Below the pieces are notes generated by a model, which made no database searches, was not told the DNA's origin, and worked only from the letters and a program-made list of their open reading frames with translations. The translations under genes and the position numbers were made by a program. From Candidatus Poribacteria bacterium (GTDB lineage Bacteria; Poribacteria; WGA-4E; PCPOR2b), in the NCBI GenBank assembly GCA_965247655.1, contig OZ252032.1:3717888-3781887 (forward strand): DNA of 64,000 bases, given 5' to 3'. Shown here piece by piece: positions 17,373 through 32,021 of the stretch (its first letter is position 1; the number at the start of each line of letters is the position of its first letter).

Positions 17373-19856
17373 TTAAAAACTAGAGTACCACATCAAATCG
17401 AAATGAACTCCCCGCTCAGAGTCGAAAGGTTTGGACAAGTTAAATCTGAGAGGAGACTCCTGCCCTAACTGCAATCCTATGCCGGCACTTGTCTTCGGGT
17501 CAAAGCGGTACGGCTTATCAGACACGTTCCAGACTTGCCCTTGATCAAGAAACAATACGAGGAACGTCTTCACATGCTTTAACCACTCCCAACCGTATGG
17601 ATTAGGCATGGGTAGGCGGTAGAAATATTCCAAATTGAGTAGGGAGACGTGATCGCCTGCAAACACATGCAGCGGATATCCGCTAAGCGTTCCCCTGCCC
17701 CCAATAATAAATTGGCGTTGAATCGGCAGTGCGCTTGTGGCAGCACCTAACACCAGTCGTGTGCGGATAATGTCGTCCCCTCTTGAGGCAGCATATCGCA
17801 GCTGTAGCTGGAATCGCGTAAAATCAAAGTCTGACCCAACAGCAGGGTTACTATGTTCAATGAGCAGGGTATTGTGCCAGCCAAGGCTACTGTTTTGCAA
17901 AGGCACAGAGACGCCTGTGGAAGATATTTGTGGGGTGTTGTCTTTCCGGGCGTTTAGGTGGTATCTCAATGTAACACTCTGCAACTGCCCGGGGGTTATT
18001 GGGGGATTTTCTTCCGCTTCCGATTCTGAACCCCAGTTTCCAAATTGCCAATCTGTAGTCTTCTGTAGGCTCTCATGTGACTCGGCACGCATCGTCAATT
18101 CGAACGAATGTGTTGGCACCACCGGCGCCCATCGCACCGATGTCTTGACACCTTTGCTCAAATAGTAGTTATGAAATCCGAGCGCCCAAAACGCATCTGA
18201 CACACCGCCATAGTGTGGGAAGAGCTCAGGAGCGATAGCAGTTGTGGCACGATGGATTTGAGCAGAGATACCCAGACTTGATGCGCCGGACTGACTCCAA
18301 ATCATGTCGCCACCCACCCGGTAATTGAGATCCCGATTTCCGAACCCATAGCCGCCCTCGCCAAAGAGTTTCGGCAGATACGCTCTAACCGAATTGGGAA
18401 CGTTCGACATCCAGAGCGGACCTATCTGCCTCCGTTTTCCCATTTCAAGATGAGCACCAAGCAGCCAACCAGTAACACGATTAAATTGAATGAGCGGAAA
18501 CGCATGGAAATAATAGTCTGAGGAGAGCCTTCTTTCCACAACGGTAATTATTGCAACGCGCCTTGTGCCGTCATTTTCAAACTGTAGGGAGACTCGACTA
18601 AAATAGGGTAGGGCGTCTTTCAAATTATCAATCGCTTTTTCGACTTCGTCAGGTCCGTTTTCAAGGACGGCTTGAATCTCCGCTTCACCGATTTTCTGAT
18701 TTCCTTGAATCCGGACTTCGTGAATTGGATCTCTCGCGGCAGTCCAAAGCCCCGTAGGTGAAGAGGTTAGCAAACGCGTTGTATCCGGCTGTGCTATGAC
18801 TATGATTGTTGCGATACGTCTCGTATCGTTACCCTTAATTTCTACGACGACCCGATTCAAATCCGGCAAGGGTAAGTAGGCAATCGCTTTTACGATATCC
18901 TCAGGTCCATTTTCAAGAGCAGTTTGAATCTCTGCATTGGTGACTTTCTGATTTCCTTGAACTCGGATTTCGTGAATCGGTTTACCTTCAGAAGTCCGAA
19001 ACCGTGTTGGAGTGGCTTGTCCTTGCGGGGTTTTATTGGGACGTATTATCAGCGAAGTTGGCAAACGTCGCACATCCGATTGCACTGTGACAATAATTGT
19101 TGCGACGCGTGTGCCACCTTCTGCATCGATCCGGACTGTTAGTGTTTGAATATCCGGGAGTTTGCTACGCAAGGTTGCCATAGCCGCAATGATTTCATCT
19201 GGGCCTTCCTCAAGCACTGTTCTAATTTGCGGTTCAATGGTTGTCTGATTGGCTTGAATTTGCACCTCATGAATCGGGTCGCCTTCGGGCATCCGAAGCA
19301 AGGTTGAAGTAGATGTGGTATTACGCCTTGCACCGAATGTGCTCAGTTCAGGTATATCAATGCCAACTTGATTCAAATTGCCCACGAGTTCGCTCACCTG
19401 TTTTGGCGCGAGCCGACCGTCTATATTTATCAGATACAGCGCCTTTCTGCCCGTGTCTCCACTGTGCTGATACACGGTCTTTTCGCTTTTGACAATTACA
19501 AAGATACTGATAACGGTGTCGCTTTGCGTGAGGGTATATAGGTGACAGTTCGCGCTTTTTTCTAACGCACTCCACCCACGTATTTTCAAGTTCGTCCCGT
19601 AATGATCAAGCATCTTGTCAAAATGACGAGCCTTGTAGGCGCGGAGGTGCAGGTGCTCGAGCGTGCTAAATTGCGAGGCAGTATCGGCGCTCATGTTTTC
19701 CATAACTAGCGCGATCGTACTGCGGTCTAAATCAAATCGAAACTCGACAAAAGGCTCATCGGGATAATCGAAAGGAACACGACCACTTTGTGGTTGTGCG
19801 TTCGCCGCTCTACTAAGTATGAGGAGTGAGAGGAAGAGAAGCATGAAGTGTTTCAT
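17373..19856 (-). CDS. Omp85/BamA-family outer-membrane protein with three tandem POTRA-like repeats
   Basis: Signal peptide MKHFMLLFLSLLILSRAANA. Three ~85-aa repeats (DPIHEVxIQGNQKxxxAEIQxxLENGPDE...). C-terminal D15-type barrel (GGRGTLSGY...NLEY...) ending in F. Confidence 0.75.
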   Translation of the reverse strand: MKHFMLLFLSLLILSRAANAQPQSGRVPFDYPDEPFVEFRFDLDRSTIALVMENMSADTASQFSTLEHLHLRAYKARHFDKMLDHYGTNLKIRGWSALEKSANCHLYTLTQSDTVISIFVIVKSEKTVYQHSGDTGRKALYLINIDGRLAPKQVSELVGNLNQVGIDIPELSTFGARRNTTSTSTLLRMPEGDPIHEVQIQANQTTIEPQIRTVLEEGPDEIIAAMATLRSKLPDIQTLTVRIDAEGGTRVATIIVTVQSDVRRLPTSLIIRPNKTPQGQATPTRFRTSEGKPIHEIRVQGNQKVTNAEIQTALENGPEDIVKAIAYLPLPDLNRVVVEIKGNDTRRIATIIVIAQPDTTRLLTSSPTGLWTAARDPIHEVRIQGNQKIGEAEIQAVLENGPDEVEKAIDNLKDALPYFSRVSLQFENDGTRRVAIITVVERRLSSDYYFHAFPLIQFNRVTGWLLGAHLEMGKRRQIGPLWMSNVPNSVRAYLPKLFGEGGYGFGNRDLNYRVGGDMIWSQSGASSLGISAQIHRATTAIAPELFPHYGGVSDAFWALGFHNYYLSKGVKTSVRWAPVVPTHSFELTMRAESHESLQKTTDWQFGNWGSESEAEENPPITPGQLQSVTLRYHLNARKDNTPQISSTGVSVPLQNSSLGWHNTLLIEHSNPAVGSDFDFTRFQLQLRYAASRGDDIIRTRLVLGAATSALPIQRQFIIGGRGTLSGYPLHVFAGDHVSLLNLEYFYRLPMPNPYGWEWLKHVKTFLVLFLDQGQVWNVSDKPYRFDPKTSAGIGLQLGQESPLRFNLSKPFDSERGVHFDLMWYSSF

Positions 19857-20007
19857 CTAAAATTTCCTGTTAGTGCCCTCAGGCAAATCAGCAGAAAAAG
19901 GTGAACACACCTAATGCCTCTCTTTCCCACCTCGTCCTCCACATCGCTATTCGCTGGCTTCAGCCATTGAAAACGACGCGAAGGAAAGATTGGATCTGTA
20001 AAGGGTA

Positions 20008-21423
20008 TCAGTTATTCAAAAACTGTTTCGCCCTTTCATATACCTCTTGGGCTTTCCCATACGAGATGGCTGCGGCTTTTGCTGCGGCAACCAAGTGGCG
20101 AAAACGGAGTGGAGGGCGGGTTGTTTGAAACTCTTCAACCGTTGCCTGATGGTGCTTCAACGCGTGCATCTCTGTCGCGTTATCCCGGCAGGCGATTTCG
20201 GTGAGGCGGGTGATTAATGCTTGCGGCTCATGTCCCAATTCTCCATACCTTGCCGTTAGCGTTGCTGCTCCGTCAACGTTATTGGCAGCGATAGCTTCCT
20301 CAATGGCAGACAATAGTTGGCTCTGACCTTGTTGAGGAATTGCAGCTACAGCATCGGGAGAGGGGTAGGGTCCGGCATCAATACGCTCTTTCGCATTTCT
20401 GACCTCGGGGCCCGAATTCCATAGCAGGAGGGCTAATATCTTGTTTTCTTTACAGATACCGTTGACCCGCAGGACATGACGCCTCACATTGACGCCGGTG
20501 TGCATGTGGACATCCATCGGATTGCTGGTATCCAAGCGCAAGAAAAGGTCTGAAGCAGCGAACGAAAGTGCTTCACCGGCTCCCTCTAAGGACAGCCCGT
20601 CCGCAAGTGCTTGGGCGGTCGTTTCAGGGATGTCAGCAAAGGCGCAGTCATTCAACCCTGCACGCAATTGAACGATAGCCTCGGTTTCATCGGCTCCCGT
20701 CGTTTGGCGCAGCGGGATTGAAAGCAGCTGATATTTCTCAATCAACTCGGTAATTTCTTGCACAGGTTTCGCTGAAGGCGGCTGTGAGATATAGCGTACG
20801 GGACCACGGGTGAGTACCTGAAGGTGCTCCCAATCGAGCCATTCGAGTACCCGCCACGTATAGACTGGATAGATGAATTTATGGTCATCCATCAGATTCT
20901 TTAGGAGGGCAACCGTCAGAAGCATATCCAGTGCTTCTTCGTGCGGCACGTTCTGAACGAGCCAAAGAAAGTAATGGTCGGCGTCATTGACAGAGCCACG
21001 CCGCACTGCATCAAAGAACGCTTGTTTGGTTCCCTCAACTCCACCGGCATCAAGCGGTTCAAATGCTGGCAACAGATAGGGACCCATAGAGGGGTGATGG
21101 ATATGCTTATTGGCTAAAGCGACGTTTTGCACCACGGGTAGAAAGCGATTGTCCCCAGAAAGCCTTGAGGCTATCTCTTTCACCGCATGTATCCCAGAGA
21201 CGGGATGCATGTGTCCGCCGTGATGGCCCCACTGCCCGTTCGCAAAGAAAGGCATCTCCGATGAACGGACGGCCGCTAGCGCAGAAGCGGTACACATTTC
21301 CTTAATCGAAACCCCAGCGTGGAGTTTTTCTATCGTCTTTTCCACAATGTCTTCAGGTGCGGTTTCCTCTACAAATTGCACCTGAGGTTCTATAGTATCG
21401 GGATATTGGACACTCGTGTACAT
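20008..21423 (-). CDS. Hypothetical protein (471 aa), His-rich N-terminal block
   Basis: Long ORF with a strong RBS (AAAGGAGG). Contains GHHGGHMHPVSGIH and KHIHHP. I recognise no family. Confidence 0.6.
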   Translation of the reverse strand: MYTSVQYPDTIEPQVQFVEETAPEDIVEKTIEKLHAGVSIKEMCTASALAAVRSSEMPFFANGQWGHHGGHMHPVSGIHAVKEIASRLSGDNRFLPVVQNVALANKHIHHPSMGPYLLPAFEPLDAGGVEGTKQAFFDAVRRGSVNDADHYFLWLVQNVPHEEALDMLLTVALLKNLMDDHKFIYPVYTWRVLEWLDWEHLQVLTRGPVRYISQPPSAKPVQEITELIEKYQLLSIPLRQTTGADETEAIVQLRAGLNDCAFADIPETTAQALADGLSLEGAGEALSFAASDLFLRLDTSNPMDVHMHTGVNVRRHVLRVNGICKENKILALLLWNSGPEVRNAKERIDAGPYPSPDAVAAIPQQGQSQLLSAIEEAIAANNVDGAATLTARYGELGHEPQALITRLTEIACRDNATEMHALKHHQATVEEFQTTRPPLRFRHLVAAAKAAAISYGKAQEVYERAKQFLNN

Positions 21424-21547
21424 GACAGACCTCCTTTTGGAGTTCTAGATGGGACGATTCACACTGTGTGATTTCCAATACATTCGTTTGAAATTGAGAC
21501 ACTATAGATGTTATCACGATGCGGAATAGAAGGCAATAGAAATATGT

Positions 21548-21804
21548 AGGGTCATTTAATTCTCCTGTAGGAGGGATCTCCGAATCCCGACACTTCACTG
21601 TAGGAGTGACTTCCCGATCGTGACTTATCCCACAGAATCGACAGAAAACCGAAAACTATGGTGAAGTCTATAAATAAGTAAACATTTGCTAATAATTTGG
21701 GTCTTTCCGAAGTTTCCAAAGTCCCCCTGATAAGGGGGATTTAGGGGGTTAGCTGTATATTGGGAGTGTCTAATTAATTCTAAAATCTACTATAAATGAC
21801 CCTA
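21548..21804 (+). mobile_element. MITE-like element (family D) flanked by a 10-bp direct repeat
   Basis: AGAAATATGT occurs at 21538-21547 and 21805-21814. Inverted ends are TAGGGTCATT (21547-21556) and AATGACCCTA (21795-21804). The left part recurs at 9091-9106 and, inverted, at 10140-10195. Confidence 0.65.
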
Positions 21805-21900
21805 AGAAATATGTGAGCCAAGATCCCCAGCCCGGTTAAGACAGACCACCACCTACGCAAAGCGCGGTGAATTGAATGGGATTTTTACACATTCTATGTA

Positions 21901-22266
21901 CTATTCTTCGCTTAGAATGCCGGCTACAATGAGACCGGTCATAAGAATTGTGTATGAACCCCAGAAAACAGTGCCATATACCCTCCCATTCCTAACTTTC
22001 CGATCGCGATAGCCTGCCAAGAACCCTTTTTGATAAGAATCCGATTCGGTTTCGATGATTTTTTGCATCGCAGATGGTACATCCTTCGGTGAGGAGTTAA
22101 AAGGTCCCTCTGTTTTCGCGAAGGCGATACCTGCTTTATAGCCGCGGTCAAACTCATCGGCGTCGAGAGAATACCGGTTCATAAAAAAATCGTGGGAGGT
22201 AGTTGAAGCACACCCAGAGATAACCAAAACACAACAGAAGAGTGCACCAATTTGTCGGAACTTCAT
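21901..22266 (-). CDS. Small lipoprotein with a C-terminal hydrophobic helix
   Basis: Signal peptide with lipobox VISGC. GGAGAC RBS. Confidence 0.6.
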   Translation of the reverse strand: MKFRQIGALFCCVLVISGCASTTSHDFFMNRYSLDADEFDRGYKAGIAFAKTEGPFNSSPKDVPSAMQKIIETESDSYQKGFLAGYRDRKVRNGRVYGTVFWGSYTILMTGLIVAGILSEE

Positions 22267-22357: not shown

Positions 22358-23755
22358 CTATGGCGAAAAGAAAATCTGCCACACCCCATTTTCTTTTCGC
22401 ATCTTATGAAGTGCGTCCGGTATCTTCGGCATTTCAAACCCCGACGCCCCCGGCACTTCCGGTGACGGTATTCTTATTTGAAAGTGGAATTCATCACCTA
22501 CATGCTCGCTGCTCACAATCTCTACCTGACCAAACATCTGTTTAAGTATCGGTTGCATCATCTCCCTAAGCATCGGAAGCATCTCATCTACTATATCTGC
22601 TGGCATCACATCATAATACATATCTACAAGATCTTGTGGTAACTCCCCATTTAAGACAGGCAACATTGCACTCTCAAACTCTTCCTTGGCAGCCCCTGTC
22701 ATTAAGATGCGCATTGCGTCAGCATCTAAATTCCTAAACGCCTCTACGTAAGCGTTCATCACATCTTCAGCGGACTGTCCCTCGTCATCTAATAACGTAG
22801 AGGAGTCAGTAAAGAGGCTCTGATCCGCTTCCATTTCAAATTCTGCCTCTGTCATGAATTGTTCCGTATCTGTTTCTTCGGATTGTCCCAAGAAATCGTC
22901 AACCAGTTCCAATCCTTCTGTGGAAATCTGTGACTGATTGTCACGGTTCTCTGCATCTTGAGCAGAATCAGTTTGGGCAGCCAAGCCTTCGGAGTTGTTT
23001 CGTGGGCGGGGTGTGCCGTCCTCCCACGGCGACAAATACACGCGCTCCTCGATTATAGGCGCATTCATCTGGCGGATACCGACGAAACCGATGAAAATCA
23101 GCGCAACCAACGCTGCTACCCCAACCGTTATTTTAGGCACCGTTCCCACTTTCATGACAGTTAGACCTCCTGAATAAATTTTCTTTAGCATCGTTGCAGG
23201 AGAAACGAAGATACCGGTCAGAAGATATTGCAACCGTTTGGAGAGTTGTCGCTTGGCACGCGACAGCCGAAACGCAATGGCGTTATATGACAGCCCGTGC
23301 GTATTTATCAGTTCGTCGTAGCTTGCGCCATCGAGGTAATACGCGCGGGCAATCTCCCTATCTTTTTCCGAGAGCGTCTCCATCGCGCGGCGAATCAATT
23401 CCCTCTGCTCCTGCCGTATTAATCGCTCATCAGAGGAATCTTCTGTTTGAAGTATCTGTTCACTCACTTCGTCAATGGGAACGGTATCGATTCGCTGTTT
23501 TCTCAGCCAACTTCGTGCGCGATTTCGTGCAATCTCCCCCAACCAATTTTTGAACTTTGCCATCTCCTGATACTGCGCCAAACCGCGATAGGCATTGAGA
23601 AAGGTGTCTTGTACAACTTCCTCGGCATCGTGTGGATTGTTCACAATTCTGATAACAATCGCATAAACGAAGGGATAATATACCCGTATCAACTCAACAA
23701 ATGCACCTTCGTCCCCAGATTGGGCACGGTGAATGAGTGTGTTGTCGTTAGCCAT
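22358..23755 (-). CDS. ECF-type sigma-70 factor fused to a transmembrane helix and an acidic extracytoplasmic C-terminal domain
   Basis: Region 2 (DAEEVVQDTFLNAYR) and region 4 (SYDELINTHGLSYNAIAFRLSRAKRQL), then a TM segment (ITVGVAALVALIFIGFVGI) and about 235 further residues. Confidence 0.8.
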   Translation of the reverse strand: MANDNTLIHRAQSGDEGAFVELIRVYYPFVYAIVIRIVNNPHDAEEVVQDTFLNAYRGLAQYQEMAKFKNWLGEIARNRARSWLRKQRIDTVPIDEVSEQILQTEDSSDERLIRQEQRELIRRAMETLSEKDREIARAYYLDGASYDELINTHGLSYNAIAFRLSRAKRQLSKRLQYLLTGIFVSPATMLKKIYSGGLTVMKVGTVPKITVGVAALVALIFIGFVGIRQMNAPIIEERVYLSPWEDGTPRPRNNSEGLAAQTDSAQDAENRDNQSQISTEGLELVDDFLGQSEETDTEQFMTEAEFEMEADQSLFTDSSTLLDDEGQSAEDVMNAYVEAFRNLDADAMRILMTGAAKEEFESAMLPVLNGELPQDLVDMYYDVMPADIVDEMLPMLREMMQPILKQMFGQVEIVSSEHVGDEFHFQIRIPSPEVPGASGFEMPKIPDALHKMRKENGVWQIFFSP

Positions 23756-23771
23756 GGCACGTTGTTCCTCC

Positions 23772-23798
23772 CTTGCATTCTATTATTAACGCCGTTCT
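23772..23798 (-). promoter_or_regulatory. Candidate ECF-type promoter (AGAAC-N17-GCAAG) upstream of 22358..23755
   Basis: The minus strand reads AGAAC (23798-23794), 17 nt, GCAAG (23776-23772). It is preceded by the conserved A-tract block AAAAAAGTGCTAAAAAAA shared with the paralog. Confidence 0.3.
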
Positions 23799-23975
23799 GC
23801 GAATTTTTTTAGCACTTTTTTGGAGATTTAACTGTCTAAATCCAGATTTACTGGATTAAAGGACTCTTAGAATAACAGATTTTTCACGCTCGACAAATAA
23901 AAAAAGGCGAATGGATTGAACCATTCGCCTTATGAAGTCCTTTGGGATTGAGTTGCCGGTTGCTTTAACGTTTCA

Positions 23976-25451
23976 CTACTCATTGTTGTCATAGATTCGC
24001 CACGTCCCATCCACTCTCCGCATCTTAACAAGACTCTCCATGCTCTCCGGTAGCTGTGGCATCTTCGGAATTTCCAGTCCCGGCACCTGTGGTATCTCCG
24101 GCATCTCCGGCATCGGTGTTCTTACTTGGAAGTGGAATTCATCCCCCACATATTCACTGCTCACAACTTCTGCCTGACCATACATCTGACTAAACACCTC
24201 CCGGGCCCTCGCCTGCACCTCCGAATCCTGCATCATCTCCCGCATCATCTGCCTCCCCCTATTTACCATCTCTTCTGACATCCCTTCTGGCATATCATCT
24301 GCTACGTTATTTACCAATTCTTCTGAAATTACCAATTCTAACTCTCCGCCCAAGATACGAAAAGCACCCTCCGCTCTTTCTCTGGCGACCCCTGTCACGA
24401 GTGGGAGTAATGCCTCAAAGTCAGCATTTTTGTACGCCTCCATATAAGCATACATCACATCTTCAGCGGACCGACCCTCGTCGTCTAATAACGTGGCGAT
24501 ATCGGTAAAGAGACTCTGATTCGCCTCTATCTTAAATTCTGCGTCTGTCGTGAATTGCGCTGTACCCGTTTCTTCAGATTGACTGAAGAAATCGTCAACT
24601 AGGTCCAGCCCTTCCGTAGAAATCTGTGACTGATTGTCCCGGTTTTCTGTGTCTTGAGTAGAATCAGTTTGGGCAGCCAAGCCTTCGGAGTTGTTTCGTA
24701 GGCGTTCAGTGCCGTCCTCCCATGGGGACAGATATACACGCTCCTCAACTATGGGCGCATTCATCTGGCGGACACCCACGAAACCGATAAGAATCAGCGC
24801 AATCAGCGCTGCTACCCCAATCGTTATTTTAGGCACCGTTCCAATTTTCATGACAGTTAGACCTCCTGAATAAATCTTTTTTAGTGTCATCGCGGGAGAA
24901 ACGAAGATACCAGTCAGAAGATATTGCAATCGTTTGGAGAGTTGCCGCTTTGCACGCGATAGTCGAAATGCAATTGCGTTGTATGACAGCCCGTGCGTCC
25001 TTGTTAGCTCGTCGTAGCTCGCTCCGTCTAAATAGAAAGCTTGGGCAATCTTCCTGTCTTTTTGCGGAAGCGTTTCCATTGTCCGGCGAATCAACTCTCT
25101 CTGCTCCTGCCGTATTAATCGCTCATCAGAAGTATCTTCCGTTTGAAGCGTCTGTTCGCTTACTTCGTCAATGGATACGGTATCGCTCCTCTGTTTTCGG
25201 AGCCAGTTTCGTGCACAATTTTGTGCAATCTCTGCCAACCAACTTTTAAATTTGGCTGCATCCTCAAGCTGTGCCAGCCCTCGATAAGCATTGAAGAACG
25301 CGTCTTGTACTACCTCTTCGGTGTCGTGGGAATTTTTCACGATTCTAATAACAATCGCATAGACGAAGGGGTAGTGTTCTCGCATTAGAGCAGCAAAAGC
25401 CCCTTCATTCCCGGTTTGGGCACGATGGATGAGTGTGTTGTCCTTAGCCAT
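23976..25451 (-). CDS. ECF-type sigma-70 factor fused to a TM helix and extracytoplasmic domain (tandem paralog)
   Basis: The N-terminal ~290 aa are nearly collinear with 22358..23755. The C-terminal domain is diverged and longer. Confidence 0.8.
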   Translation of the reverse strand: MAKDNTLIHRAQTGNEGAFAALMREHYPFVYAIVIRIVKNSHDTEEVVQDAFFNAYRGLAQLEDAAKFKSWLAEIAQNCARNWLRKQRSDTVSIDEVSEQTLQTEDTSDERLIRQEQRELIRRTMETLPQKDRKIAQAFYLDGASYDELTRTHGLSYNAIAFRLSRAKRQLSKRLQYLLTGIFVSPAMTLKKIYSGGLTVMKIGTVPKITIGVAALIALILIGFVGVRQMNAPIVEERVYLSPWEDGTERLRNNSEGLAAQTDSTQDTENRDNQSQISTEGLDLVDDFFSQSEETGTAQFTTDAEFKIEANQSLFTDIATLLDDEGRSAEDVMYAYMEAYKNADFEALLPLVTGVARERAEGAFRILGGELELVISEELVNNVADDMPEGMSEEMVNRGRQMMREMMQDSEVQARAREVFSQMYGQAEVVSSEYVGDEFHFQVRTPMPEMPEIPQVPGLEIPKMPQLPESMESLVKMRRVDGTWRIYDNNE

Positions 25452-25467
25452 GGCTCTCGGTTCCTCC

Positions 25468-25493
25468 CTTACACTTTATTAAGACACAGTTCC
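25468..25493 (-). promoter_or_regulatory. Candidate ECF-type promoter (GGAAC-N16-GTAAG) upstream of 23976..25451
   Basis: The minus strand reads GGAAC (25493-25489), 16 nt, GTAAG (25472-25468). The same upstream A-tract block is present. Confidence 0.3.
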
Positions 25494-25666
25494 GAGATTT
25501 TTTTTAGCACTTTTTTGCATTGAGACGTGAATTTTTATTTTTGGTTGGCTTTGGTAGGATTAGGCAAATTGAGAGTACATTTGGTCGCAGGAAGTTGACT
25601 ACCAATAAAAAAAGCCGACCTATGATGAGTCGGCTTTCGTATTTCATACCTTAATATTGGGAGGGG

Positions 25667-27949
25667 CTACACTGTTGCACCGTGTTTTCGGAGGATTTCA
25701 GCAATTTCCGTATGCCCTTTTTTCTCTGCCCAAGCGAGTGGGGTTGCCCACGATGCGCCTGCCAGATTGGGGTCTGCGCCGCGGTCAAGCAGAAACTCAG
25801 CCAGATCTTTGTTACCAAACCGCGCTGCCCAACCGAGCGGGGTTGACTTTAACTTGTCTTCCATCGCATTGATGTCAGCACCGTGATTGAGCAGCATACG
25901 GGCAAACTCGACGACCTCTTCTGCTGTATGTCCATAAGTTATAGGATTACAACTCTTGCCAGCCAAGTGATGAAGGATCGTGAAGTTGAACCGCTCATCC
26001 CGTGGATTTCGGAGGTTCGGGTCTATCCCGTATTCGAGCAGCTTATCCAAATTGGTGATGTAGTTGCGACGGTCAAATCCCTCGTTGTTGATTTTCAGAT
26101 CGCCCAGCCGCCAACCGCGTACCGATTGTTCCAACAAATTAAACCACTTGGTGTCATCATACTGTGGATTATCGCGTAGTCCCATCTCGACCACATCAAT
26201 ATTACCCGCCAGAATCGCGCTCCAGAGTAATTCTTTGCGTTCTGATGTATCTCGCTGAAGGATTTCCGAAATGGCAGGGAGATTGTTTGTGAGACAGTAA
26301 CTCAACAGATCAGCAACTGCGCCGTGTTGGAACATCAGATCCGCAACGCGCTTGTGTCCATATTGATACGCCCAGCAGACGGCGTTACCAGACGCGTAGA
26401 CCGCCGTGTTTGGATTTGCCCCGCTCTCAATCAACAATTTCACAACCTCATAATGTCCACGATTGGCTGCAAGCCAAAGCGGATGTCCCCACTGTTTCAC
26501 CTTCTCGCCGGCGACATCAATTTCAAACGGAGAATCCGGATCTGCCCCAGCGTCAATTAGCAGTTGGACAACTTGCGTATGTCCTTGAAAACAAGCGACG
26601 ACCAGCGGGTTGTCATAGTCTCCCCAGAACGGTTCTCTGCTTTTGCATAGCTGGGTCTTATCCTCACAGGCGTCAATAAACCGCTTCACGCCTTCGACAT
26701 CGCCGACGCCGCAGGCAACCCAGAGATCATACGTCGCGCCACGTGCGGGCAAGGCACCCGCGAGGATGGCGTAGGTTTTGTACATCTCATCCGGCTCCTT
26801 CCAACTGTGTGCGAGGCAGTGGTGGATCGGACGACTTCCGTCCGCTGCCCGGTGGTCAACATCGGCACCCCGGTCTAGCAACTCAAGGACAAGCGATAAA
26901 TCGCCCCTGCCAATCGCTTCAAAAAGCGCAGTTTTTCCGCCCCGATCGGTTGCATTGATAAGCTCTGCCTCCTCGTTGAGCAATGAGCGGATCTGTTCAA
27001 TATCGCCGCCTGCTGCAGCATGGGTTAAGGCTTCACCCTTTGGTGTCGTCCCCCGTTGCTCGTTGAGCCACCCTTCAATGACCTCAACGACAGCGGTGTA
27101 CCCACGGTCTTTTGCTATTGTCAGCGCACTAGTGGCTTCACGGTGGGGATATATCCCGTTGAGCGGGTCTGCTCCTGCTTCTAGTAGCACACGCACGATT
27201 TCAGCATGCCCCTCTTCCACTGCAAGGTGGATGGGCTGATGTTCATTATTTGAAGCGATGTCTTGGGTTGCTAACTCCGGCTTGACGGCGAGGATCTCCT
27301 GAACCCGTTGCAGGTCGCCCACTTGCGCCGCATTGCAGATGCCGACTGCATTGACAAACGAATCGTCACGTGAGGGTGCGTTTCGATGGAGTGTATCTTT
27401 TAACATAGTAATCATCCTTTCGGAATGTAAGGTTGCTTTTAGACGCTTCCTTGAGGCACGGAGTCGGTTATCGACCGTCGTCACCGGCACCTCCAGGAAG
27501 TCCGCAATCTGTTTCTGTGAAAAACCGCTGATATAGAAGAGCGTTGTGACCTGACGCTGGCTCTCCGGCAATGCAGCGACCGCAGCCAACACGAGGGATT
27601 TCGTCTCTTGTTCCTCAATTTCAACCGCCGGATCTCTCCTGCCCGAAGGTATCTCAAGCATCGTTTCTAGGGGCATGAGTTCGTCGCGCTTTCCGCGTGT
27701 CAACCGATTGCAGTGTTTGAAAATAATCCTGCGGAACCAGCCCGGGAACGCAACGGGACCATAGACCCTTGAAAGGATCGGATACGCCTCAATGAATGCC
27801 TCTTGCACTGCATCTTCAGCCAGATGGAAATCCCCTAAGATGGAGAAGGCGTAGCCCACAGCCATATCTTGGAACTGTTGGACAATCCTACCGTAGGCAT
27901 CCAGATCCCCGGCTTGTGCACGACTGATAAGTGATTCTAGCTCTTCCAT
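25667..27949 (-). CDS. ECF-type sigma-70 factor fused to a ~550-aa ankyrin-repeat domain
   Basis: N-terminal ~185 aa hold sigma regions 2 and 4 (EDAVQEAFIEAY; SQKQIADFLEVPVTTVDNRLRASRKRL). At least 10 ankyrin-like repeats follow (for example PIHLAVEEGHAEIVRVLLEAGADP, TPLGWAARFGNKDLAEFLLDRGADPN). No TM segment. Confidence 0.8.
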   Translation of the reverse strand: MEELESLISRAQAGDLDAYGRIVQQFQDMAVGYAFSILGDFHLAEDAVQEAFIEAYPILSRVYGPVAFPGWFRRIIFKHCNRLTRGKRDELMPLETMLEIPSGRRDPAVEIEEQETKSLVLAAVAALPESQRQVTTLFYISGFSQKQIADFLEVPVTTVDNRLRASRKRLKATLHSERMITMLKDTLHRNAPSRDDSFVNAVGICNAAQVGDLQRVQEILAVKPELATQDIASNNEHQPIHLAVEEGHAEIVRVLLEAGADPLNGIYPHREATSALTIAKDRGYTAVVEVIEGWLNEQRGTTPKGEALTHAAAGGDIEQIRSLLNEEAELINATDRGGKTALFEAIGRGDLSLVLELLDRGADVDHRAADGSRPIHHCLAHSWKEPDEMYKTYAILAGALPARGATYDLWVACGVGDVEGVKRFIDACEDKTQLCKSREPFWGDYDNPLVVACFQGHTQVVQLLIDAGADPDSPFEIDVAGEKVKQWGHPLWLAANRGHYEVVKLLIESGANPNTAVYASGNAVCWAYQYGHKRVADLMFQHGAVADLLSYCLTNNLPAISEILQRDTSERKELLWSAILAGNIDVVEMGLRDNPQYDDTKWFNLLEQSVRGWRLGDLKINNEGFDRRNYITNLDKLLEYGIDPNLRNPRDERFNFTILHHLAGKSCNPITYGHTAEEVVEFARMLLNHGADINAMEDKLKSTPLGWAARFGNKDLAEFLLDRGADPNLAGASWATPLAWAEKKGHTEIAEILRKHGATV

Positions 27950-28143
27950 ATCAACCTCTTATTCTATTGATAGGTTTCACTATAATAATCCCAATTCGCT
28001 GAGACGATCCGTGTAAAAAACAGGATTTATTTTATCATTTTGTTACTTTTTTGTAAACGCCAAAGAAAAGCCAACGAAGAACCCTTCAAACGAGGTTGGC
28101 TTTTTCGTAATATTTCCTACCGTGAGAACTTTCCCTTTTTTTG

Positions 28144-28250: not shown

Positions 28251-28724
28251 TTGGCTAAGAAAGTTATTCATACAACAATTAATGGAGAGGCACACACACA
28301 CGAAGTTGAGCCACGGCTGCTTTTGGTTCACTACATCCGAGATGTTGTTGGTTTGACCGGCTCACACGTCGGTTGTGAAACGAGCCTGTGTGGTGCTTGT
28401 ACGGTTACAGTGAACGGACAAGCAGTCAAATCGTGTACGATGCTGGCGGTCCAAGCGGATGGCGCGGAAATTACAACCATCGAAGGCTTGGCGCAAAATG
28501 GAGATCTTCACGCCATTCAAGAGGGGTTCTGGGAACGTCACGGCTTGCAGTGTGGTTTCTGTACTCCCGGAATGATTATGGCAGCCCATCAACTGCTGGA
28601 GCGGCATCCCAACCCAACGGAAGATGAGATACGGCACGGGTTGGAAGGCAATCTTTGCCGCTGCACCGGTTATCAGCATATTGTTGAGGCGGTCCAACAC
28701 GCTGCGGAGAAGATGCAGGGCTAA
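28251..28724 (+). CDS. coxS: (2Fe-2S)-binding small subunit of a xanthine-dehydrogenase/CODH-family molybdoenzyme
   Basis: [19 protein letters not shown] and CRCTGY cysteine clusters. TTG start 8 nt after AAAGGAGG. Confidence 0.85.
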
Positions 28725-28762
28725 CAAGCAAGAGATAGGACGCAAATAGGAGGATCGATATT

Positions 28763-31099
28763 ATGGCAACAATAGCGGCACCGACTCGAATGATAGGCGC
28801 CCCGATTAAACGACGCGAGGATCCACGATTAATCCAAGGGTTATCCCATTATGTCGACGATATTAAGCTGGTGGGCACCCTTCACTGTGCCTTCGTGCGC
28901 AGCGACTATGCACATGCAGTCATCAACAGCATTGATACAACAGCAGCCAAAGAATTGCCCGGCGTCGTTACGGTGATTACCGCCGAAGACCTTGGCGAGG
29001 TTGGGGGCATCCCTTGTGGCGCGGAAATTCCAGGCCTTAAGGTGCCAGATCACCCTCCGCTGGCAGTGGGGCGTGTCCGGTTCGTTGGGGAAGCAGTCGC
29101 TGCGGTTGTGGCGACAGATGCGTATATTGCCAGGGATGCGCTGGACCTGATTGAAGTTGATTATGAAGCGCTGCCCGCTGTTACTGACCTCGATAAGGCG
29201 GTCGAGGCGGATTCACCGTTGATTTATGACGACTTTGGCGACAATATCGGTTTCACAATGCCGTTAGAGGCAGGGGATGCCGATGCTGCTTTCGCAGAAG
29301 CGAATCATGTGGTATCTCAGCGTTTCGTCAATCAGCGTCTGGTTCCGAATGCGATGGAAACGCGTGGGGTGTTAGCTGAATATCTACCGGGCGAAGGCAC
29401 CCTTACCGTCTGGTCATCAACGCAGGTTCCACACATTCTTAAAACGCAGTTGTCTCTTATCGTCAACGTGCCGGAACAGAAAGTGCGCGTCATCGCCCCG
29501 GAAGTTGGCGGCGGCTTCGGTAGTAAGTTAAATGTCTACCCCGAAGAGGTCGTTGTTTCGTATTTGGCGATACAATTACGTAAACCAGTGAAATGGACGG
29601 AGAAGCGGACTGAGAACTTCACAACGACAATCCATGGGCGAGACCAAGTCAACTATGTGGATGTCGCAGTTAATAACGATGGGACAATCACAGGGATTCG
29701 TGCGAAAATCCTCGCCGACCTTGGTGCGTCCTATCAGCTGCTCACCCCGCTGATTCCCACATTGACAAATCTCATGATTGTCGGCTGTTACAAGATTCCA
29801 AACGTTCAGATCGAATTGGTCGGTGTCTTAACGAACAAGATGGCGACGGATGCGTACCGCGGTGCGGGGCGTCCCGAAGCGACCTACATCATTGAGCGCA
29901 TGGTTGATCTGGCAGCATCGGCGGTAGGAATGGATCCGAAAGATATTCGGTTCAAAAACTTCCCGCAGCCGACTGAATTCCCGCTTGAAATCCCAACTGG
30001 AATTGTCTACGACAGTGGCAACTACCAAGAAAGCTTTAACAAGGCACTGGGAATTGTCGACTATGATGGTCTACGAAGCCAGCAGGCGCAACTTCGTGAG
30101 CAGGGCAGATATCTAGGAATTGGTATCTCCACCTATGCTGAGATTTGTGGTATGGGCCCCTCCATAGCGATGCCCGCCGGCGGTTGGGAAAGTAGCACCG
30201 TCCGGGTCGAACCGACTGGAAAGATTACGGTGTTGACTGGTGTTTCACCACACGGTCAGGGCCAAGAGACCACCTTTGCACAGCTGATCGCCGATGAGTT
30301 TGGCGTCGATATTGATGATATCATAGTCATCCACGGCGACACAGGAAGGCAGCCTTACGGTATCGGTACCTTTGGTAGTCGGGCGACGGCTGTCGGTGGA
30401 ACGGCGATGGTTATCGCTGCGGGTCAGGTGAAGGAAAAGATGGCAAAATTCGCAGCCCATCTGATGGAAGCCAACTCCGAGGACCTTGTCTTTGGAGACG
30501 GACAGATCTTCGTCGAAGGTTCACCGGATCAAGCGATTGATTTCGCGGCGATTGCCCTAGAAGCACACGTCGCCAAGAATCTACCGCCCGACACGACGCC
30601 TGGCCTCGAAGCAACGCATTTCTTTGAACCGTCCAACTTCACCTATCCATTCGGTGCCCACATCGCAGTGGTCGAGGTTGACACCGATACCGGTGAGATT
30701 GATATTCAGCGATATGTATGCGTTGACGATATCGGCAATATCATCAATCCCTTAATTGTTGCGGGACAGGTACATGGTGGCATTGCACAAGGTTTGGGGC
30801 AGGCACTGTATGAAGGAGCGGTCTACGATGAGAGCGGGCAGCTTTTGACCGGCTCATTGATGGATTATGCCGTTCCCAAGGCGACACAGGTGCCCCACTT
30901 TGAAACAGACCATACGGTGACTCCTTCACCTGTAAATCCGATGGGTGTTAAAGGAGTTGGTGAAGCCGGAACGATTGGCTCAACGCCGTGTATGGTCAAT
31001 GCCGTTGTGGACGCCTTATCGCCGTTTGGGGTGAAGGATATCGAAATGCCGCTGACGCCGAACCGTGTGTGGCAGGCAATTCAAGATGCAAAGGGTTAA
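28763..31099 (+). CDS. coxL: Molybdopterin-binding large subunit, form-II (putative) CoxL type
   Basis: 778 aa. The active-site loop reads AYRGAGR (form-II signature), not AYxCSFR of bona fide form-I CO dehydrogenase. Confidence 0.8.
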   Translation: MATIAAPTRMIGAPIKRREDPRLIQGLSHYVDDIKLVGTLHCAFVRSDYAHAVINSIDTTAAKELPGVVTVITAEDLGEVGGIPCGAEIPGLKVPDHPPLAVGRVRFVGEAVAAVVATDAYIARDALDLIEVDYEALPAVTDLDKAVEADSPLIYDDFGDNIGFTMPLEAGDADAAFAEANHVVSQRFVNQRLVPNAMETRGVLAEYLPGEGTLTVWSSTQVPHILKTQLSLIVNVPEQKVRVIAPEVGGGFGSKLNVYPEEVVVSYLAIQLRKPVKWTEKRTENFTTTIHGRDQVNYVDVAVNNDGTITGIRAKILADLGASYQLLTPLIPTLTNLMIVGCYKIPNVQIELVGVLTNKMATDAYRGAGRPEATYIIERMVDLAASAVGMDPKDIRFKNFPQPTEFPLEIPTGIVYDSGNYQESFNKALGIVDYDGLRSQQAQLREQGRYLGIGISTYAEICGMGPSIAMPAGGWESSTVRVEPTGKITVLTGVSPHGQGQETTFAQLIADEFGVDIDDIIVIHGDTGRQPYGIGTFGSRATAVGGTAMVIAAGQVKEKMAKFAAHLMEANSEDLVFGDGQIFVEGSPDQAIDFAAIALEAHVAKNLPPDTTPGLEATHFFEPSNFTYPFGAHIAVVEVDTDTGEIDIQRYVCVDDIGNIINPLIVAGQVHGGIAQGLGQALYEGAVYDESGQLLTGSLMDYAVPKATQVPHFETDHTVTPSPVNPMGVKGVGEAGTIGSTPCMVNAVVDALSPFGVKDIEMPLTPNRVWQAIQDAKG

Positions 31100-31166
31100 G
31101 ATAATTTTCCGAAGGTTTGAAACCTTCGGAAAGTTATGCTCAAGTGAAGGAAGGAGGATGTAAAGA

Positions 31167-32021
31167 ATGATTCCGGGAAGTTTTGAATACTTTGCACCGA
31201 CAGCACTTGATGAAGCGTTGTCGCTCTTGCAGGAACATGGAGACGATGCGAAGGTGCTCGCTGGTGGACATAGCTTGATCCCAACGATGAAATTACGTTT
31301 AGCTGAACCGGCGGTCATCATCGATATTGGACGCATCGGCGGCTTGAAAGGGATCTCTGAGTCTGGTGGAAAATTGGTTATCGGTGCGCTGACGACGCAT
31401 CATGAATTGGAGAGTTCAGATCTGGTCCAGCAGCGGGTGCCGCTGCTTGCACAAACCGCTGCCGAAATTGGTGATGTGCAGATACGCAACAAAGGCACAA
31501 TCGGCGGCAGCCTTGCACACGCTGATCCGGCTGCTGATTGGCCCGCGACGATTCTCGCGCTTGATGCTAATCTTCAAATCGCTGGTCCCAATGGCGAGCG
31601 GACTGTCAAAGCAACCGATTTCTTCCAAGGACTGTACGAGACAGACCTCGGAGACGACGAAATCCTTACGGCAGTCCATGTGTCGATTCCAGATGCTAAC
31701 ACCACAGGGACATATCTGAAGCTGCACCAAGTGGCATCAGGATTTGCCCTTGCGGGGGTGGCTGTTGTCTTGACGAAATCCGGAGACACTTGCCAGAGCG
31801 TCGCTGTCGGTATCACTGGTGTTTCGGATGCCCCATATCGGGCGTCGGGCGTCGAGTCTGCGCTGACAGGGGCGGCATTGACCGCTGAGAATATCGCTGC
31901 CGCTGCTGAGAGAGCGGTTGACGGGATAACTGCGTTGGAAGATCTCCACGCAAGTCAGGCGTATCGCGAAAACCTGGCGCAAGTCTACACCCGTCGGGCG
32001 ATTGAGAGTGCCGCGTCATAA
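31167..32021 (+). CDS. coxM: FAD-binding medium subunit (CoxM/CutM type)
   Basis: FEYFAPTALDEALSLLQEHGDDAKVLAGGHSLIPTMKLR N-terminus. The S-L-M gene order is typical of form-II clusters. Confidence 0.85.
   Translation: MIPGSFEYFAPTALDEALSLLQEHGDDAKVLAGGHSLIPTMKLRLAEPAVIIDIGRIGGLKGISESGGKLVIGALTTHHELESSDLVQQRVPLLAQTAAEIGDVQIRNKGTIGGSLAHADPAADWPATILALDANLQIAGPNGERTVKATDFFQGLYETDLGDDEILTAVHVSIPDANTTGTYLKLHQVASGFALAGVAVVLTKSGDTCQSVAVGITGVSDAPYRASGVESALTGAALTAENIAAAAERAVDGITALEDLHASQAYRENLAQVYTRRAIESAAS

Follow-up and report, generated by a model that had tools for sequence, protein, structure and literature searches.

An ECF sigma factor fused to a cytoplasmic ankyrin array in Poribacteria, with a core that carries many different tails across its clade

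The gene described here lies in a window of 64,000 nucleotides (the whole stretch of Candidatus Poribacteria DNA that was analysed) and encodes an ECF (group 4) sigma factor core fused to a cytoplasmic ankyrin array, an identity that we regard as secure. At the level of sequence comparison, its core belongs to a clade that shares one chassis, composed of sigma2, sigma4 and two post-sigma4 helices, on which variable tails are mounted. It is, in our judgement, an even call whether the protein works as a self-contained cytoplasmic sigma factor that is gated in cis through its post-sigma4 helices, with the ankyrin module serving as the protein-binding input. The features of the gene and its surroundings are collected in Table 1.

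Table 1. Positions of the sigma-ankyrin gene, its domains, nearby signals and neighbouring sigma genes in the window.
Feature	Positions	Strand	Basis
Whole sigma-ankyrin ORF, 760 aa + stop	25667..27949	(-)	ATG start; Pfam, NCBIfam, dN/dS
Shine-Dalgarno AAGAGG, 6 nt 5' of ATG	27955..27960	(-)	Direct sequence read; kept in L002 and L092
Sigma2 domain, residues 4-85	27695..27940	(-)	Pfam Sigma70_r2; AF2 helices 4-84
Flexible sigma2-sigma4 linker, residues 86-106	27632..27694	(-)	pLDDT <50 in both AF2 models
Sigma4 domain, residues 107-174	27428..27631	(-)	Pfam Sigma70_r4_2 and Sigma70_r4; AF2 helices 107-174
Clade-conserved post-sigma4 element, residues 175-206	27332..27427	(-)	Conservation; pLDDT 91-95, core-only AF2
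Ankyrin-repeat module, residues 207-760	25670..27331	(-)	Pfam Ank, AF2, Foldseek, consensus scan, conservation
Degenerate remnant of clade -10-like element GGGATTATTATA	27981..27992	(-)	Score 11/17, not above shuffles
Sigma70-like promoter candidate TTTACA-17-TAAAAT, extended TG	28029..28057	(-)	Consensus match only, 10/12
Intrinsic terminator right after the sigma-ankyrin stop	25610..25638	(-)	11-bp stem, then T run
ECF-TM fusion, 491 aa, different ECF group	23976..25451	(-)	Own terminator 23904-23931
Paralogous ECF-TM fusion, 465 aa	22358..23755	(-)	Core 82% identical to core of the 491-aa gene

Profile searches recognize both parts of the protein. In Pfam, Sigma70_r2 (residues 23-80, 28.4 bits against a cutoff of 24) and Sigma70_r4_2 (residues 120-170, 46.3 bits against 25.7) are matched, while Sigma70_r1 and Sigma70_r3 are not. 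The NCBIfam model TIGR02937 (sigma70-ECF) scores 70.4 bits against a cutoff of 42.9, and the ECF sigmas AlgU, SigW and RpoE align end to end with residues 2-174 in a phmmer search of the PDB. Sigma2 and sigma4 without sigma1.1 or sigma3, separated by a disordered linker of 21 residues (86-106), make up the architecture of an ECF (group 4) factor. The first-pass annotation, which had described the first ~185 residues as a canonical ECF core, is thereby borne out for residues 1-174. The sigma2 domain holds the core-binding-type motif LAEDAVQEAF, conserved among homologues as LAEDAxQEAF, together with W71 and C80, and it represents the most conserved segment of the family (3.0-3.3 bits per column in the conservation profile).

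The extension after sigma4 comprises ~585 residues, of which the ankyrin part takes up ~555; with more than 50 residues after sigma4, conserved among homologues, the protein is an extended ECF. Pfam matches Ank_2 in six stretches of the tail (177 bits against a cutoff of 27.3, E = 1e-52), along with Ank, Ank_3, Ank_4 and Ank_5. An ankyrin consensus scan yields seven units above the 95% shuffle maximum and two borderline ones, and the full-length AlphaFold2 model (pLDDT 86.3, pTM 0.82) displays ~16 helix-pair units over residues 197-755. A beta-hairpin is inserted into the array at 474-487, and within the array conservation is highest in the last three repeats (681-760). The hallmark of the ankyrin-repeat class is a solenoid built from tandem 33-residue helix-turn-helix repeats, and Foldseek ranks the AnkB 24-repeat solenoid and DARPins at the top of its matches (E ~1e-15). 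The initial estimate of at least ten ankyrin-like repeats and no TM segment thus agrees with the predicted fold and with the hydropathy of the protein, whose maximum KD19 is 1.23, compared with 2.7-2.8 (residues 202-235) in the ECF-TM neighbours.

A signal peptide was not found in the protein either, and the lack of both elements weighs against a eukaryote-like ankyrin effector directed at the host sponge, in which the sigma part would be incidental or decaying. The Poribacteria lineage is sponge-associated and rich in ankyrin genes, Ank-only paralogues exist, and the same role has been proposed for other symbiont ankyrin proteins. However, conservation peaks in the sigma part, on which purifying selection acts, and the same fusion is present in groundwater Chloroflexi and in Blastocatellia, which leaves a host effector highly improbable.

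The fusion itself is real and conserved. Among its 20 closest homologues, which come from independent assemblies and are 86-97% identical, 19 are also 760 aa long. Short-read contigs from four DNA runs contain zero indels within the ORF, one of them covering 26922-28058 ungapped, and metatranscriptome contigs cover the gene. The orthologues at loci L002 and L092 align with the ORF without gaps over 2280 nt and give a dN/dS of ~0.10, with the sigma part at 0.11 and the ankyrin part at 0.09-0.10. Colinear sigma-ankyrin homologues number 82 and come from Poribacteria, Latescibacteria, Gemmatimonadetes, Planctomycetota, Chloroflexi and Blastocatellia. A mis-assembly near 27400 had been named as a risk to the original claim, and some database entries of close relatives are indeed split into pieces of 121-160, 420 or 482 aa, as would be expected if assembly or gene calling had joined a sigma gene to an ankyrin gene. 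These breaks are, however, frameshifts at scattered positions (after residues ~97-104 and 293) that occur in long-read assemblies, and none of them falls at the junction near residue 190, which short-read contigs cross without an indel in the ORF. The 760-aa homologues, the short-read contigs and the dN/dS values refute such an artefact, and the occurrence of 82 colinear fusions in different phyla further reduces its probability to a negligible level.

The gene had initially been grouped with its two ECF-TM neighbours into one regulatory locus of three sigma fusions. A joint locus is not supported, because the three genes are separate, terminator-bounded units of unrelated ECF groups. The sigma-ankyrin core shares only 23-24% identity with the cores of the two ECF-TM proteins, each of the three genes ends in its own intrinsic terminator, and the sigma-ankyrin gene is monocistronic. 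The clade promoter motif described below is absent from the window, and linkage to ECF-TM genes is found only in close Poribacteria relatives, where the number of these genes varies from two to three and one kind is an ECF-TM-M16 peptidase fusion. Within Poribacteria, the sigma-ankyrin gene shows synteny and core-gene-like conservation. More distant sigma-ankyrin genes reside in unrelated genomic contexts, and no conserved neighbours were found around the distant sigma-ankyrin and clade loci examined.

The remaining description of the neighbourhood was accurate. Besides the ECF-TM fusions, it contains a 121-aa lipoprotein (ISGC lipobox), a 471-aa protein without any Pfam match and an 827-aa Omp85-family protein. 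No adjacent anti-sigma gene had been seen, and this extends to related loci: anti-sigma-type Pfam domains are absent beside the gene in the window and in nine related loci (from L002-L007 and L088-L092), and the intergenic ORFs, checked for a cognate anti-sigma, are at most 81 aa long and unsupported. We also rejected a Rosetta-stone relationship, as the Ank-only proteins of ~577 aa (80% identical) are not adjacent to a separate sigma gene. At L001, a stand-alone Ank-only paralogue follows a SpoU methylase gene, and at L003, a 35%-identical Ank-only gene of the 563-aa type immediately precedes a complete sigma-ankyrin fusion and not a bare sigma gene. These arrangements provide no evidence for an ancestral pair of sigma and anti-sigma.

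Described ECF tails are few (SnoaL, TPR, Cys-rich, WD40, DUF1835), and the prevailing view is that each tail type has its own core group. What is new here is a nearly invariant core, with a conserved post-sigma4 element and promoter motif, that bears at least 62 unrelated tails. Matches to residues 1-200 at E ≤ 1e-30 put the clade of the sigma-ankyrin core at 859 cluster representatives or more. An extension is present in 137 of 140 full-core matches, and at least 62 extension clusters occur among 134 proteins, ankyrin being the commonest tail. Pfam families detected in the tails are Ank, FliG_C, FliM, BFN, T2SSF, PheRS core, APH, Rho_RNA_bind, citrate synthase, HisKA/HATPase, ATP-synt_ab, SecA, GNAT and radical SAM. 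Non-ankyrin tails are carried by cores 61-68% identical to the sigma-ankyrin core, and many ankyrin fusions have cores merely 45-57% identical to it. We relied on this comparison of identity bands because a quick neighbour-joining tree of the cores, in which ankyrin fusions fall into at least four clades mixed with other tails, carries no support values and reflects biased sampling. The scan of the genome collection used sigma-part patterns, and the matches listed were mostly non-ankyrin relatives, with close orthologues missed; it is therefore unfit for a phyletic census, yet it exposed the variable-tail clade.

This large many-tail group of sigma factors is apparently undescribed. The main texts of the 2021 ECF classification and of the 2022 review of non-canonical ECFs do not mention an ankyrin tail, and we found no literature in which an ECF sigma factor, ankyrin and a C-terminal extension appear together. 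Papers that combine ECF, sigma factor and ankyrin are unrelated as judged by title and abstract, and the Aravind TRADD-N paper deals with other systems.

It is probable that the diverse tail domains serve as sensors integrated into the protein. Frequently, a tail is a paralogue of a subunit from an essential machine (SecA, F1-beta, Rho, PheRS, citrate synthase, FliG/FliM), some tails are catalytically degenerate (Walker A GVGKA in L016 and GAGST in L020 of Rhodospirillales URHD0017), and several loci are situated among transposases, XRE/ImmA-like and other accessory genes. These features might hint at integrated decoys, with tails that bait phage, competitor or host effectors and with an attack triggering a transcriptional counter-response. 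There is a small chance that the sigma core is a general output module, into which bacteria of several little-studied phyla insert bait or sensor domains and which produces a common response like plant NLR integrated decoys. The baits would be ankyrin arrays as well as copies, often without catalytic activity, of essential machine subunits, including PilM/PilC; all sensors would converge on ACCTTT-N12-GGGTCT, and attack on a guarded component, or its mis-assembly, would trigger the response. In the sponge symbiont, the ankyrin version would, together with the free Ank-only paralogues, detect a protein of host or phage origin. The ankyrin part does weakly match the PADLOC candidate PDC-M72A and the NCBIfam family MzaA, but these similarities are at the level of ankyrin repeats only (91 bits against a cutoff of 800 for MzaA), and both identities were rejected on this ground. 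The lack of linked defence genes, the core-gene-like synteny in Poribacteria and the absence of an experimental precedent for sigma-fused decoys likewise make decoys improbable. If they were true, they would constitute a new principle of bacterial surveillance.

The promoter regions of the clade display a bipartite motif, ACCTTT-N12-GGGTCT, also written ACCTTT-N12-GG(G/C)TCT. In 12 of 22 loci, its end lies 18-37 nt 5' of the start codon, compared with 1 of 200 shuffles; the loci that served to define the motif overlap in part with those on which it was scored. Among 12 strong matches in 658 kb, 11 stand upstream of the sigma gene itself; these include L008, which was not used in building the motif, and the independent loci L088-L090 lend partial support. 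Clade members thus apparently share an autoregulatory promoter, as far as upstream sequences can indicate.

The sigma-ankyrin gene of the window deviates from this pattern. The remnant GGGATTATTATA resembles the elements of L006 and L009, with no matching ACCTTT -35 element. As the upstream region lacks a good match to the motif, autoregulation is not supported for this gene. Scanning the 64-kb window with the clade-promoter PWM gave 4 matches, within the range of 2-8 seen in shuffles, and therefore points to no local target promoters; a naive test for enriched k-mer pairs was not significant. The sigma70-like promoter candidate is identical in the L092 orthologue. Metatranscriptome contigs reach 28000/28001, positions that we rejected as a transcription start since they are assembly ends rather than read 5' ends. 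Transcription of the gene appears to be weak and to start from the sigma70-like candidate promoter, so that control would lie mainly at the post-translational stage.

The region between sigma4 and the ankyrin array consists of helix 177-189, the APSRD..F motif region and helix 197-206, which doubles as the first helix of the ankyrin stack. P192 is invariant in the ankyrin-fusion family and its position is retained in the clade consensus, which keeps a PSxDxxF junction motif; at least 90% of clade sequences have F198. Both helices are conserved clade-wide regardless of the domain that follows. In a core-only AF2 model (residues 1-207; pLDDT 90, pTM 0.84), they reach pLDDT values of 91-95, and AF2 predicts with confidence that helices 177-206 dock on the core even when the ankyrin part is left out. 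The model superposes globally on CnrH/CnrY (TM 0.73, rmsd 5.4), SigW/RsiW (0.69) and EcfG/NepR (0.62), but not on RNAP-bound sigmas (rmsd ~26-27 Å, TM 0.36-0.42). These predictions suggest a closed state of sigma2 and sigma4 that resembles the anti-sigma-bound form, with the proviso that AF2 may prefer closed ECF conformations that it learned from crystallized sigma/anti-sigma complexes. Going by the models, it is most likely the pair of post-sigma4 helices, and not the ankyrin solenoid, that contacts the sigma domains. The first-pass annotation had proposed an in-cis anti-sigma or partner-binding switch, and of this proposal a cis-regulatory role endures as the best reading.

The conserved, exposed-looking P-S-R-D junction between the two helices could also serve proteolytic activation, with the tail blocking or sequestering sigma until a cut at the APSRD junction or degradation of the tail frees the core. 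Such a mechanism would be workable with any tail fold, in keeping with the diversity of tails, and proteolysis of extensions has a published precedent (cf. IutY and the predicted mechanisms of ECF48/52/53). On the other hand, the junction is modelled as structured (pLDDT ~90), and no protease gene is consistently adjacent among the loci examined. Ank-only paralogues keep an APxRDD-like N-terminus without any sigma domain, so the motif may belong to the ankyrin module and not to a latch. Taken together, we assign proteolysis a low probability.

C-terminal extensions are known to control sigma activity in ECF41 and ECF42 (PMC7826278, PMC8999054), and the TPR extension of ECF42 is required for activity rather than being inhibitory (PMC8999054). 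By this precedent, the ankyrin extension could be a positive element, required for sigma activity, for stabilization of the holoenzyme or for recruitment of a partner to target promoters. Purifying selection on the extension is as strong as on the sigma core, and the pTM of the full-length model hints at a defined global arrangement. It is nevertheless hard to see how a fold-specific co-activator interface would go with so many unrelated folds on a nearly invariant core, and the predicted core conformation is like that of inhibited sigmas and unlike RNAP-bound ones. We therefore consider a positive role unlikely.

The cis-gated reading can be outlined as follows. In the resting state, the post-sigma4 helices would lie on the sigma domains and keep sigma2 and sigma4 closed, preventing the binding of RNA polymerase, as a cis counterpart of short trans-acting anti-sigmas such as CnrY or NepR. 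Binding of a protein ligand to the ankyrin module, or its loss, would move this latch mechanically and open the sigma factor. A mechanical route from the ankyrin module to the latch is conceivable because the second post-sigma4 helix is at the same time the first helix of the ankyrin stack. The open sigma would direct RNA polymerase to ACCTTT-N12-GG(G/C)TCT promoters, in most clade members including its own. We infer the closed-state latch from the predicted structures and, likewise conditionally, the gating by a ligand and the direction of the effect. If this latch model is true, the clade would represent a natural library of plug-and-play sensor-sigma switches, of interest for signal-transduction research and synthetic biology, and it would offer a handle on the binding partners of ankyrin proteins from uncultivated sponge symbionts.

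Several known systems invite comparison. MzaA of the MZA anti-phage system is the best NCBIfam match by E-value and combines sigma-70-type and ankyrin-like regions, but it is matched through its ankyrin repeats only and far below the cutoff. PADLOC found no Mza components among the neighbours, and a literature search on MzaA returned nothing relevant. The Paenibacillus DUF1835 fusions L024 and L025 (ECF264, Paenibacillaceae) were drawn in by the core motif; they show 35-38% core identity and have an upstream ACCTTT/G-N12-GGCAC motif in common with the sigma-ankyrin clade. They differ in lacking the RM..M....PSRD..F post-sigma4 helix, their identity is too low for a claim of the same group, and DUF1835, which marks ECF264, is not matched by Pfam in the sigma-ankyrin protein.

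In ECF41 and ECF56 (SigJ, 5XE7; SigG1, 7QH5), a fused C-terminal domain keeps sigma2 and sigma4 compact, and the sigma-ankyrin protein would resemble these one-component sigmas in this respect. However, its predicted core superposes poorly on SigJ (TM 0.30-0.38) and moderately on SigG1 (TMq 0.46), and Pfam does not match SnoaL, the domain typical of ECF41, ECF56, ECF294 and ECF295, in the protein. The best matches for the predicted core arrangement are the complexes of CnrH with CnrY (class II) and of EcfG with NepR (rmsd ~5.4 Å), in which inhibition is achieved by two short helices. CnrY and NepR are separate proteins, whereas the helices of the sigma-ankyrin protein would act in cis, fused after sigma4, and the likeness is one of predicted structure only.

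ECF42, exemplified by Sven_0747 of Streptomyces venezuelae, differs in that its TPR tail is ~200 aa long, compared with ~555 aa for the ankyrin tail, and in that its core and extension co-cluster, whereas the same core carries dozens of tails in the sigma-ankyrin clade. Pfam matches ankyrin families only, and not TPR, in the sigma-ankyrin protein. Both proteins nonetheless combine an ECF core with a long helical-repeat protein-interaction domain in the cytoplasm, both are without a cognate anti-sigma gene, and the ECF42 extension is considered to relay the binding of proteins as a signal (PMC8999054, PMC7826278), much as the ankyrin module might do.

Pfam places Sigma70_r2 at residues 23-80 of the sigma-Ank protein and Sigma70_r4_2 at residues 120-170, and from about residue 196 onwards ankyrin families match very strongly, as far as the C-terminus (Ank_2, E=1e-52, six stretches); the profile search proposed with the first-pass annotation thus recovered both sigma domains and the ankyrin families. 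The protein passes TIGR02937, the generic ECF model of NCBIfam (70.4 bits vs. a cutoff of 42.9), and the solved ECF sigma factors AlgU, SigW and RpoE can be aligned end to end with residues 2-174. Full-length AlphaFold2 modelling from a 59-sequence family alignment (pLDDT 86.3, pTM 0.82) yields the predicted layout given in the table, with the AnkB 24-repeat solenoid, tankyrase ARCs and DARPins as Foldseek neighbours (E ~1e-15). Seven ankyrin units exceed the 95% shuffle maximum in a consensus scan, and two further ones are borderline. No hydrophobic segment is present in sigma-Ank, its maximum KD19 being 1.23; the two neighbouring ECF-TM fusions reach 2.7-2.8 in their single TM helices. Hence, the ECF core, the ten or more ankyrin-like repeats and the lack of a TM segment, all read earlier from the sequence, hold.

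Features of the sigma-Ank gene, its product and its surroundings (window coordinates unless residues or another locus are named)
Feature	Position	Strand	Remarks
sigma-Ank ORF	25667..27949	(-)	ATG start, 760 aa
Shine-Dalgarno AAGAGG	6 nt upstream of sigma-Ank ATG	(-)	sequence
Degenerate -10-like element	27981-27992		upstream of sigma-Ank
Candidate sigma70-like promoter TTTACA-17-TGnTAAAAT	28029-28057		best consensus match upstream of sigma-Ank; conserved in L092
coxS/L/M-like molybdenum hydroxylase operon, then TonB-dependent receptor	28251-32021 (operon)	(+)	upstream of sigma-Ank, divergent
Strong intrinsic terminator	25610-25638	(-)	after sigma-Ank gene
Two paralogous ECF-TM-unknown-domain proteins	22358-25666	(-)	491 and 465 aa; downstream of sigma-Ank
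Upstream block AAAAAGTGCTAAAAAAAWTCKCRGAAC	25470-25500, 23775-23805	(-)	immediately preceding the RBS of each ECF-TM gene
Lipoprotein, 471-aa protein, Omp85/POTRA-like protein	17373-22266	(-)	121 aa (ISGC lipobox), 471 aa, 827 aa; downstream of ECF-TM genes
ECF-TM array of L002	5375-9646 (L002)		one ECF-TM-M16 peptidase fusion and one ECF-TM gene
ECF-TM array of L092	12449-18597 (L092)		three genes, one apparently split
sigma2	residues 4-84		helices; AlphaFold2
sigma2-sigma4 linker	residues 86-106		disordered; AlphaFold2
sigma4	residues 107-174		helices; AlphaFold2
First post-sigma4 helix	residues 177-189		AlphaFold2
Ankyrin module	residues 197-755		~16 helix pairs, one beta-hairpin insert (474-487); AlphaFold2

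The sigma-ankyrin fusion is genuine. Among its 20 closest homologues, one of which is named Candidatus Poribacteria, 19 are also exactly 760 aa long (86-97% identity, independent assemblies). Latescibacteria, Gemmatimonadetes and Planctomycetota have colinear proteins of 31-59% identity, which are also encoded by Chloroflexi and Blastocatellia genomes; with a threshold of 400 or more colinear ankyrin-matching residues, we counted 82 sigma-Ank proteins. Alignment of the gene with two orthologous loci is gap-free over 2280 nt, with dN/dS values of 0.11 (sigma part) and 0.09-0.10 (ankyrin part). Misassembly of two genes into one, with a stop or frameshift near 27400, was named in the first-pass annotation as a refuting case; it is contradicted by this constant length, by the absence of indels in the ORF among contigs from four DNA runs and by one DNA contig (26922-28058) that crosses the domain junction. 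Split database entries of close relatives, from long-read assemblies, reflect scattered frameshifts (after residues ~97-104 and 293), none of them at the sigma/ankyrin junction. One DNA contig displays an in-frame 288-nt deletion (27550-27839, residues ~37-133 lost; depth ~27 vs. ~250), and one metatranscriptome contig, from a ~93%-identical strain, lacks 8 nt at 26090 and continues across the terminator into the next gene; strain variation or assembly artefacts may account for both. In related strains, the gene is partly covered by metatranscriptome contigs at a depth, in itself a poor measure of expression, far below that of the divergent Mo-hydroxylase operon.

A search with residues 1-200 against 1.84 billion cluster representatives returned 859 matches at E<=1e-30. 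The best 150 of these, although 160-943 aa long, share 49-73% identity across nearly the full query, post-sigma4 helix included, apart from one 160-aa fragment that is 87% identical. C-terminal extensions are carried by 137 of the 140 matches with a complete core, and those of 134 of them fall into 62 unrelated BLAST clusters, with ankyrin as the largest (23 members). Pfam identifies as tails of clade proteins and genome loci FliG_C, FliM, the BFN nuclease domain, T2SSF, PilM, PheRS core, APH, the Rho RNA-binding domain, a complete citrate synthase, HisKA+HATPase_c, receiver, F1-ATPase alpha/beta-like, SecA motor, GNAT, radical SAM, TPR-like and DUF1835 domains (examples include loci L010, L014, L016, L020 and L024, proteins P0122-P0135 and others). 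At least one clade member comes from a cultured isolate, Rhodospirillales URHD0017 (L020), as do the more distant Paenibacillus DUF1835 fusions (L024, L025) that are without the post-sigma4 helix. Walker A is degenerate in the ATPase-like tails of L016 (GVGKA) and L020 (GAGST), and the SecA-like tail of L010 retains GEGKT.

Tail types are interleaved in a rough NJ tree of the cores. Histidine-kinase, ATPase-like, radical-SAM, GNAT or citrate-synthase tails sit on cores 61-68% identical to that of the window, and many colinear ankyrin fusions have cores just 45-57% identical to it. Signature residues throughout the clade include D46, Q49, W71 and C80, followed after sigma4 by a helix with RM..M and a junction motif with the consensus P-S-x-D-x-x-F. 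Within the ankyrin-fusion family P192 never varies, and the clade consensus keeps this position; F198 is conserved in at least 90% of clade sequences. Two or three sigma-Ank paralogues occur in single genomes (P0066, P0096 and P0098 on one 5.46-Mb contig; P0063 and P0083 in GCA_012263305.1), indicating that the ankyrin-tailed form itself has expanded within genomes.

Poribacteria also encode stand-alone proteins colinear with sigma-Ank residues ~176-760. One Ank-only lineage is ~80% identical (P0022, P0024, P0029) and still has a linker-like N-terminus, TLKDTLQENAPSRDD in P0022 and degenerate in the other two. A second, 35% identical, lies directly upstream of a sigma-Ank gene in L003 and starts ...EKAPLRDDGLVNA. 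Such proteins indicate that the ankyrin module also works without a sigma domain, and they might compete for the same ligand or act on the sigma core in trans. In L001 (1-17764), an Ank-only paralogue is part of a series of small accessory genes on one strand (methyltransferases, GrpB, APH, a metallo-beta-lactamase-fold gene, Antibiotic_NAT, two DUF123 genes), near a 946-aa ECF-Tricorn/PD40 fusion; this region resembles a cassette or accessory island.

How a tail could act on the core is suggested by a core-only AlphaFold2 model (residues 1-207, 25-sequence alignment; pLDDT 90, pTM 0.84), in which both post-sigma4 helices score pLDDT 91-95 without the ankyrin module. This model superposes whole on ECF sigma factors in complex with their anti-sigma factors, namely CnrH/CnrY (TM 0.73, rmsd 5.4 Å), SigW/RsiW (TM 0.69) and EcfG/NepR (TM 0.62); on RNAP-bound ECF sigma factors, it fits one domain at a time (rmsd ~26-27 Å). 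CnrY and NepR inhibit via two short helices on the closed sigma2/sigma4 pair, and the clade-conserved helices 177-189 and 197-206 appear well placed for similar inhibition in cis. Since the ankyrin stack begins with helix 197-206, binding of a ligand, loss of a partner, unfolding or another event in the tail could be passed on to this putative latch. Such fold-independent coupling would explain the many unrelated tails on one core. AlphaFold2 is possibly biased towards closed ECF states, and the opposite sign, with the tail required for activity by analogy with ECF42, is a live rival, as is proteolytic release at the junction. The latch mechanism is probably the one that operates.

A bipartite motif, ACCTTT-N12/13-GG(G/C)TCT(T)TA, precedes clade genes of several phyla and tail types, ending 18-37 nt before the start codon. 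It scores at least 13/17 in 12 of 22 loci vs. 1 of 200 shuffles, and 11 of the 12 strong matches in 658 kb of loci (both strands) closely precede the sigma gene itself, among them that of L008, which was not used in deriving it. Independent loci lend it partial support. As the motif was derived partly from the loci scored, the case for a shared clade promoter is only suggestive; the constant placement and spacing of the motif recall classical ECF autoregulation. A 10-bp perfect palindrome, GAAGGCCTTC, or a near copy follows the -10-like element by ~5-15 nt in L004, L088, L013 and L016, between clade promoter and start codon, and could be an operator or 5'-UTR element. Upstream of the window's sigma-Ank gene, no -35 match to the motif was found, and RNA contigs reach 28000/28001; elsewhere in the window, no instance rises above background.

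The first-pass annotation had further described three consecutive fusions forming a regulatory locus, followed by lipoprotein, 471-aa and Omp85-like genes. The same-strand adjacency and the downstream genes were found as described, but a joint circuit is not supported. The ECF-TM cores are 82% identical to each other and only 23-24% identical to the sigma-Ank core, a second strong terminator follows the 491-aa ECF-TM gene, and in close relatives, which keep the arrangement, the ECF-TM array varies from two to three genes, including an ECF-TM-peptidase M16 fusion of 875-876 aa. Distant sigma-Ank genes have unrelated contexts, often isolated, some among transposases or XRE/ImmA-like genes, and no anti-sigma-type neighbour occurs at the more distant loci examined. 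We therefore treat the adjacency as lineage-specific synteny rather than a demonstrated three-sigma circuit. Only ~30 residues separate sigma4 from the TM helix in the ECF-TM proteins, leaving no room for an anti-sigma domain; the periplasmic part is acidic and of low complexity, followed by a conserved C-terminal domain without a Pfam match. Their shared, conserved upstream block may be their own ECF-type promoter or operator. The lipoprotein/471-aa/Omp85 block, whose 471-aa protein has no family match, keeps its place after the ECF-TM genes in the orthologous loci L002 and L092 and is likely an envelope module under ECF-TM control. The Mo-hydroxylase operon falls just below the cutoffs of the glyceraldehyde dehydrogenase alpha and beta models, and its contig depth is ~10-100 times that of the sigma-Ank gene in four sponge-type metatranscriptomes.

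Sigma-Ank is a member of the ECF family and, by architecture, belongs to the ECFs with C-terminal regulatory extensions, the regulatory effect itself being predicted from the model. MzaA was rejected as its identity (91 bits vs. a cutoff of 800). Full-text literature searches returned no paper describing an ECF sigma-ankyrin fusion; neither the main text of the non-canonical-ECF review of 2022 (PMC8999054) nor that of the 2021 ECF reclassification (PMC7826278), whose supplements may list such a fusion, contains the word "ankyrin". The gene alone is of moderate interest, and the variable-tail clade is the more noteworthy result. ECF41, ECF42 and ECF264 differ from sigma-Ank by their defining domains. 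According to the main text of the reclassification (PMC7826278), every type of extension co-clusters with a core group of its own; the clade departs from this generalisation, with one core bearing many tail types.
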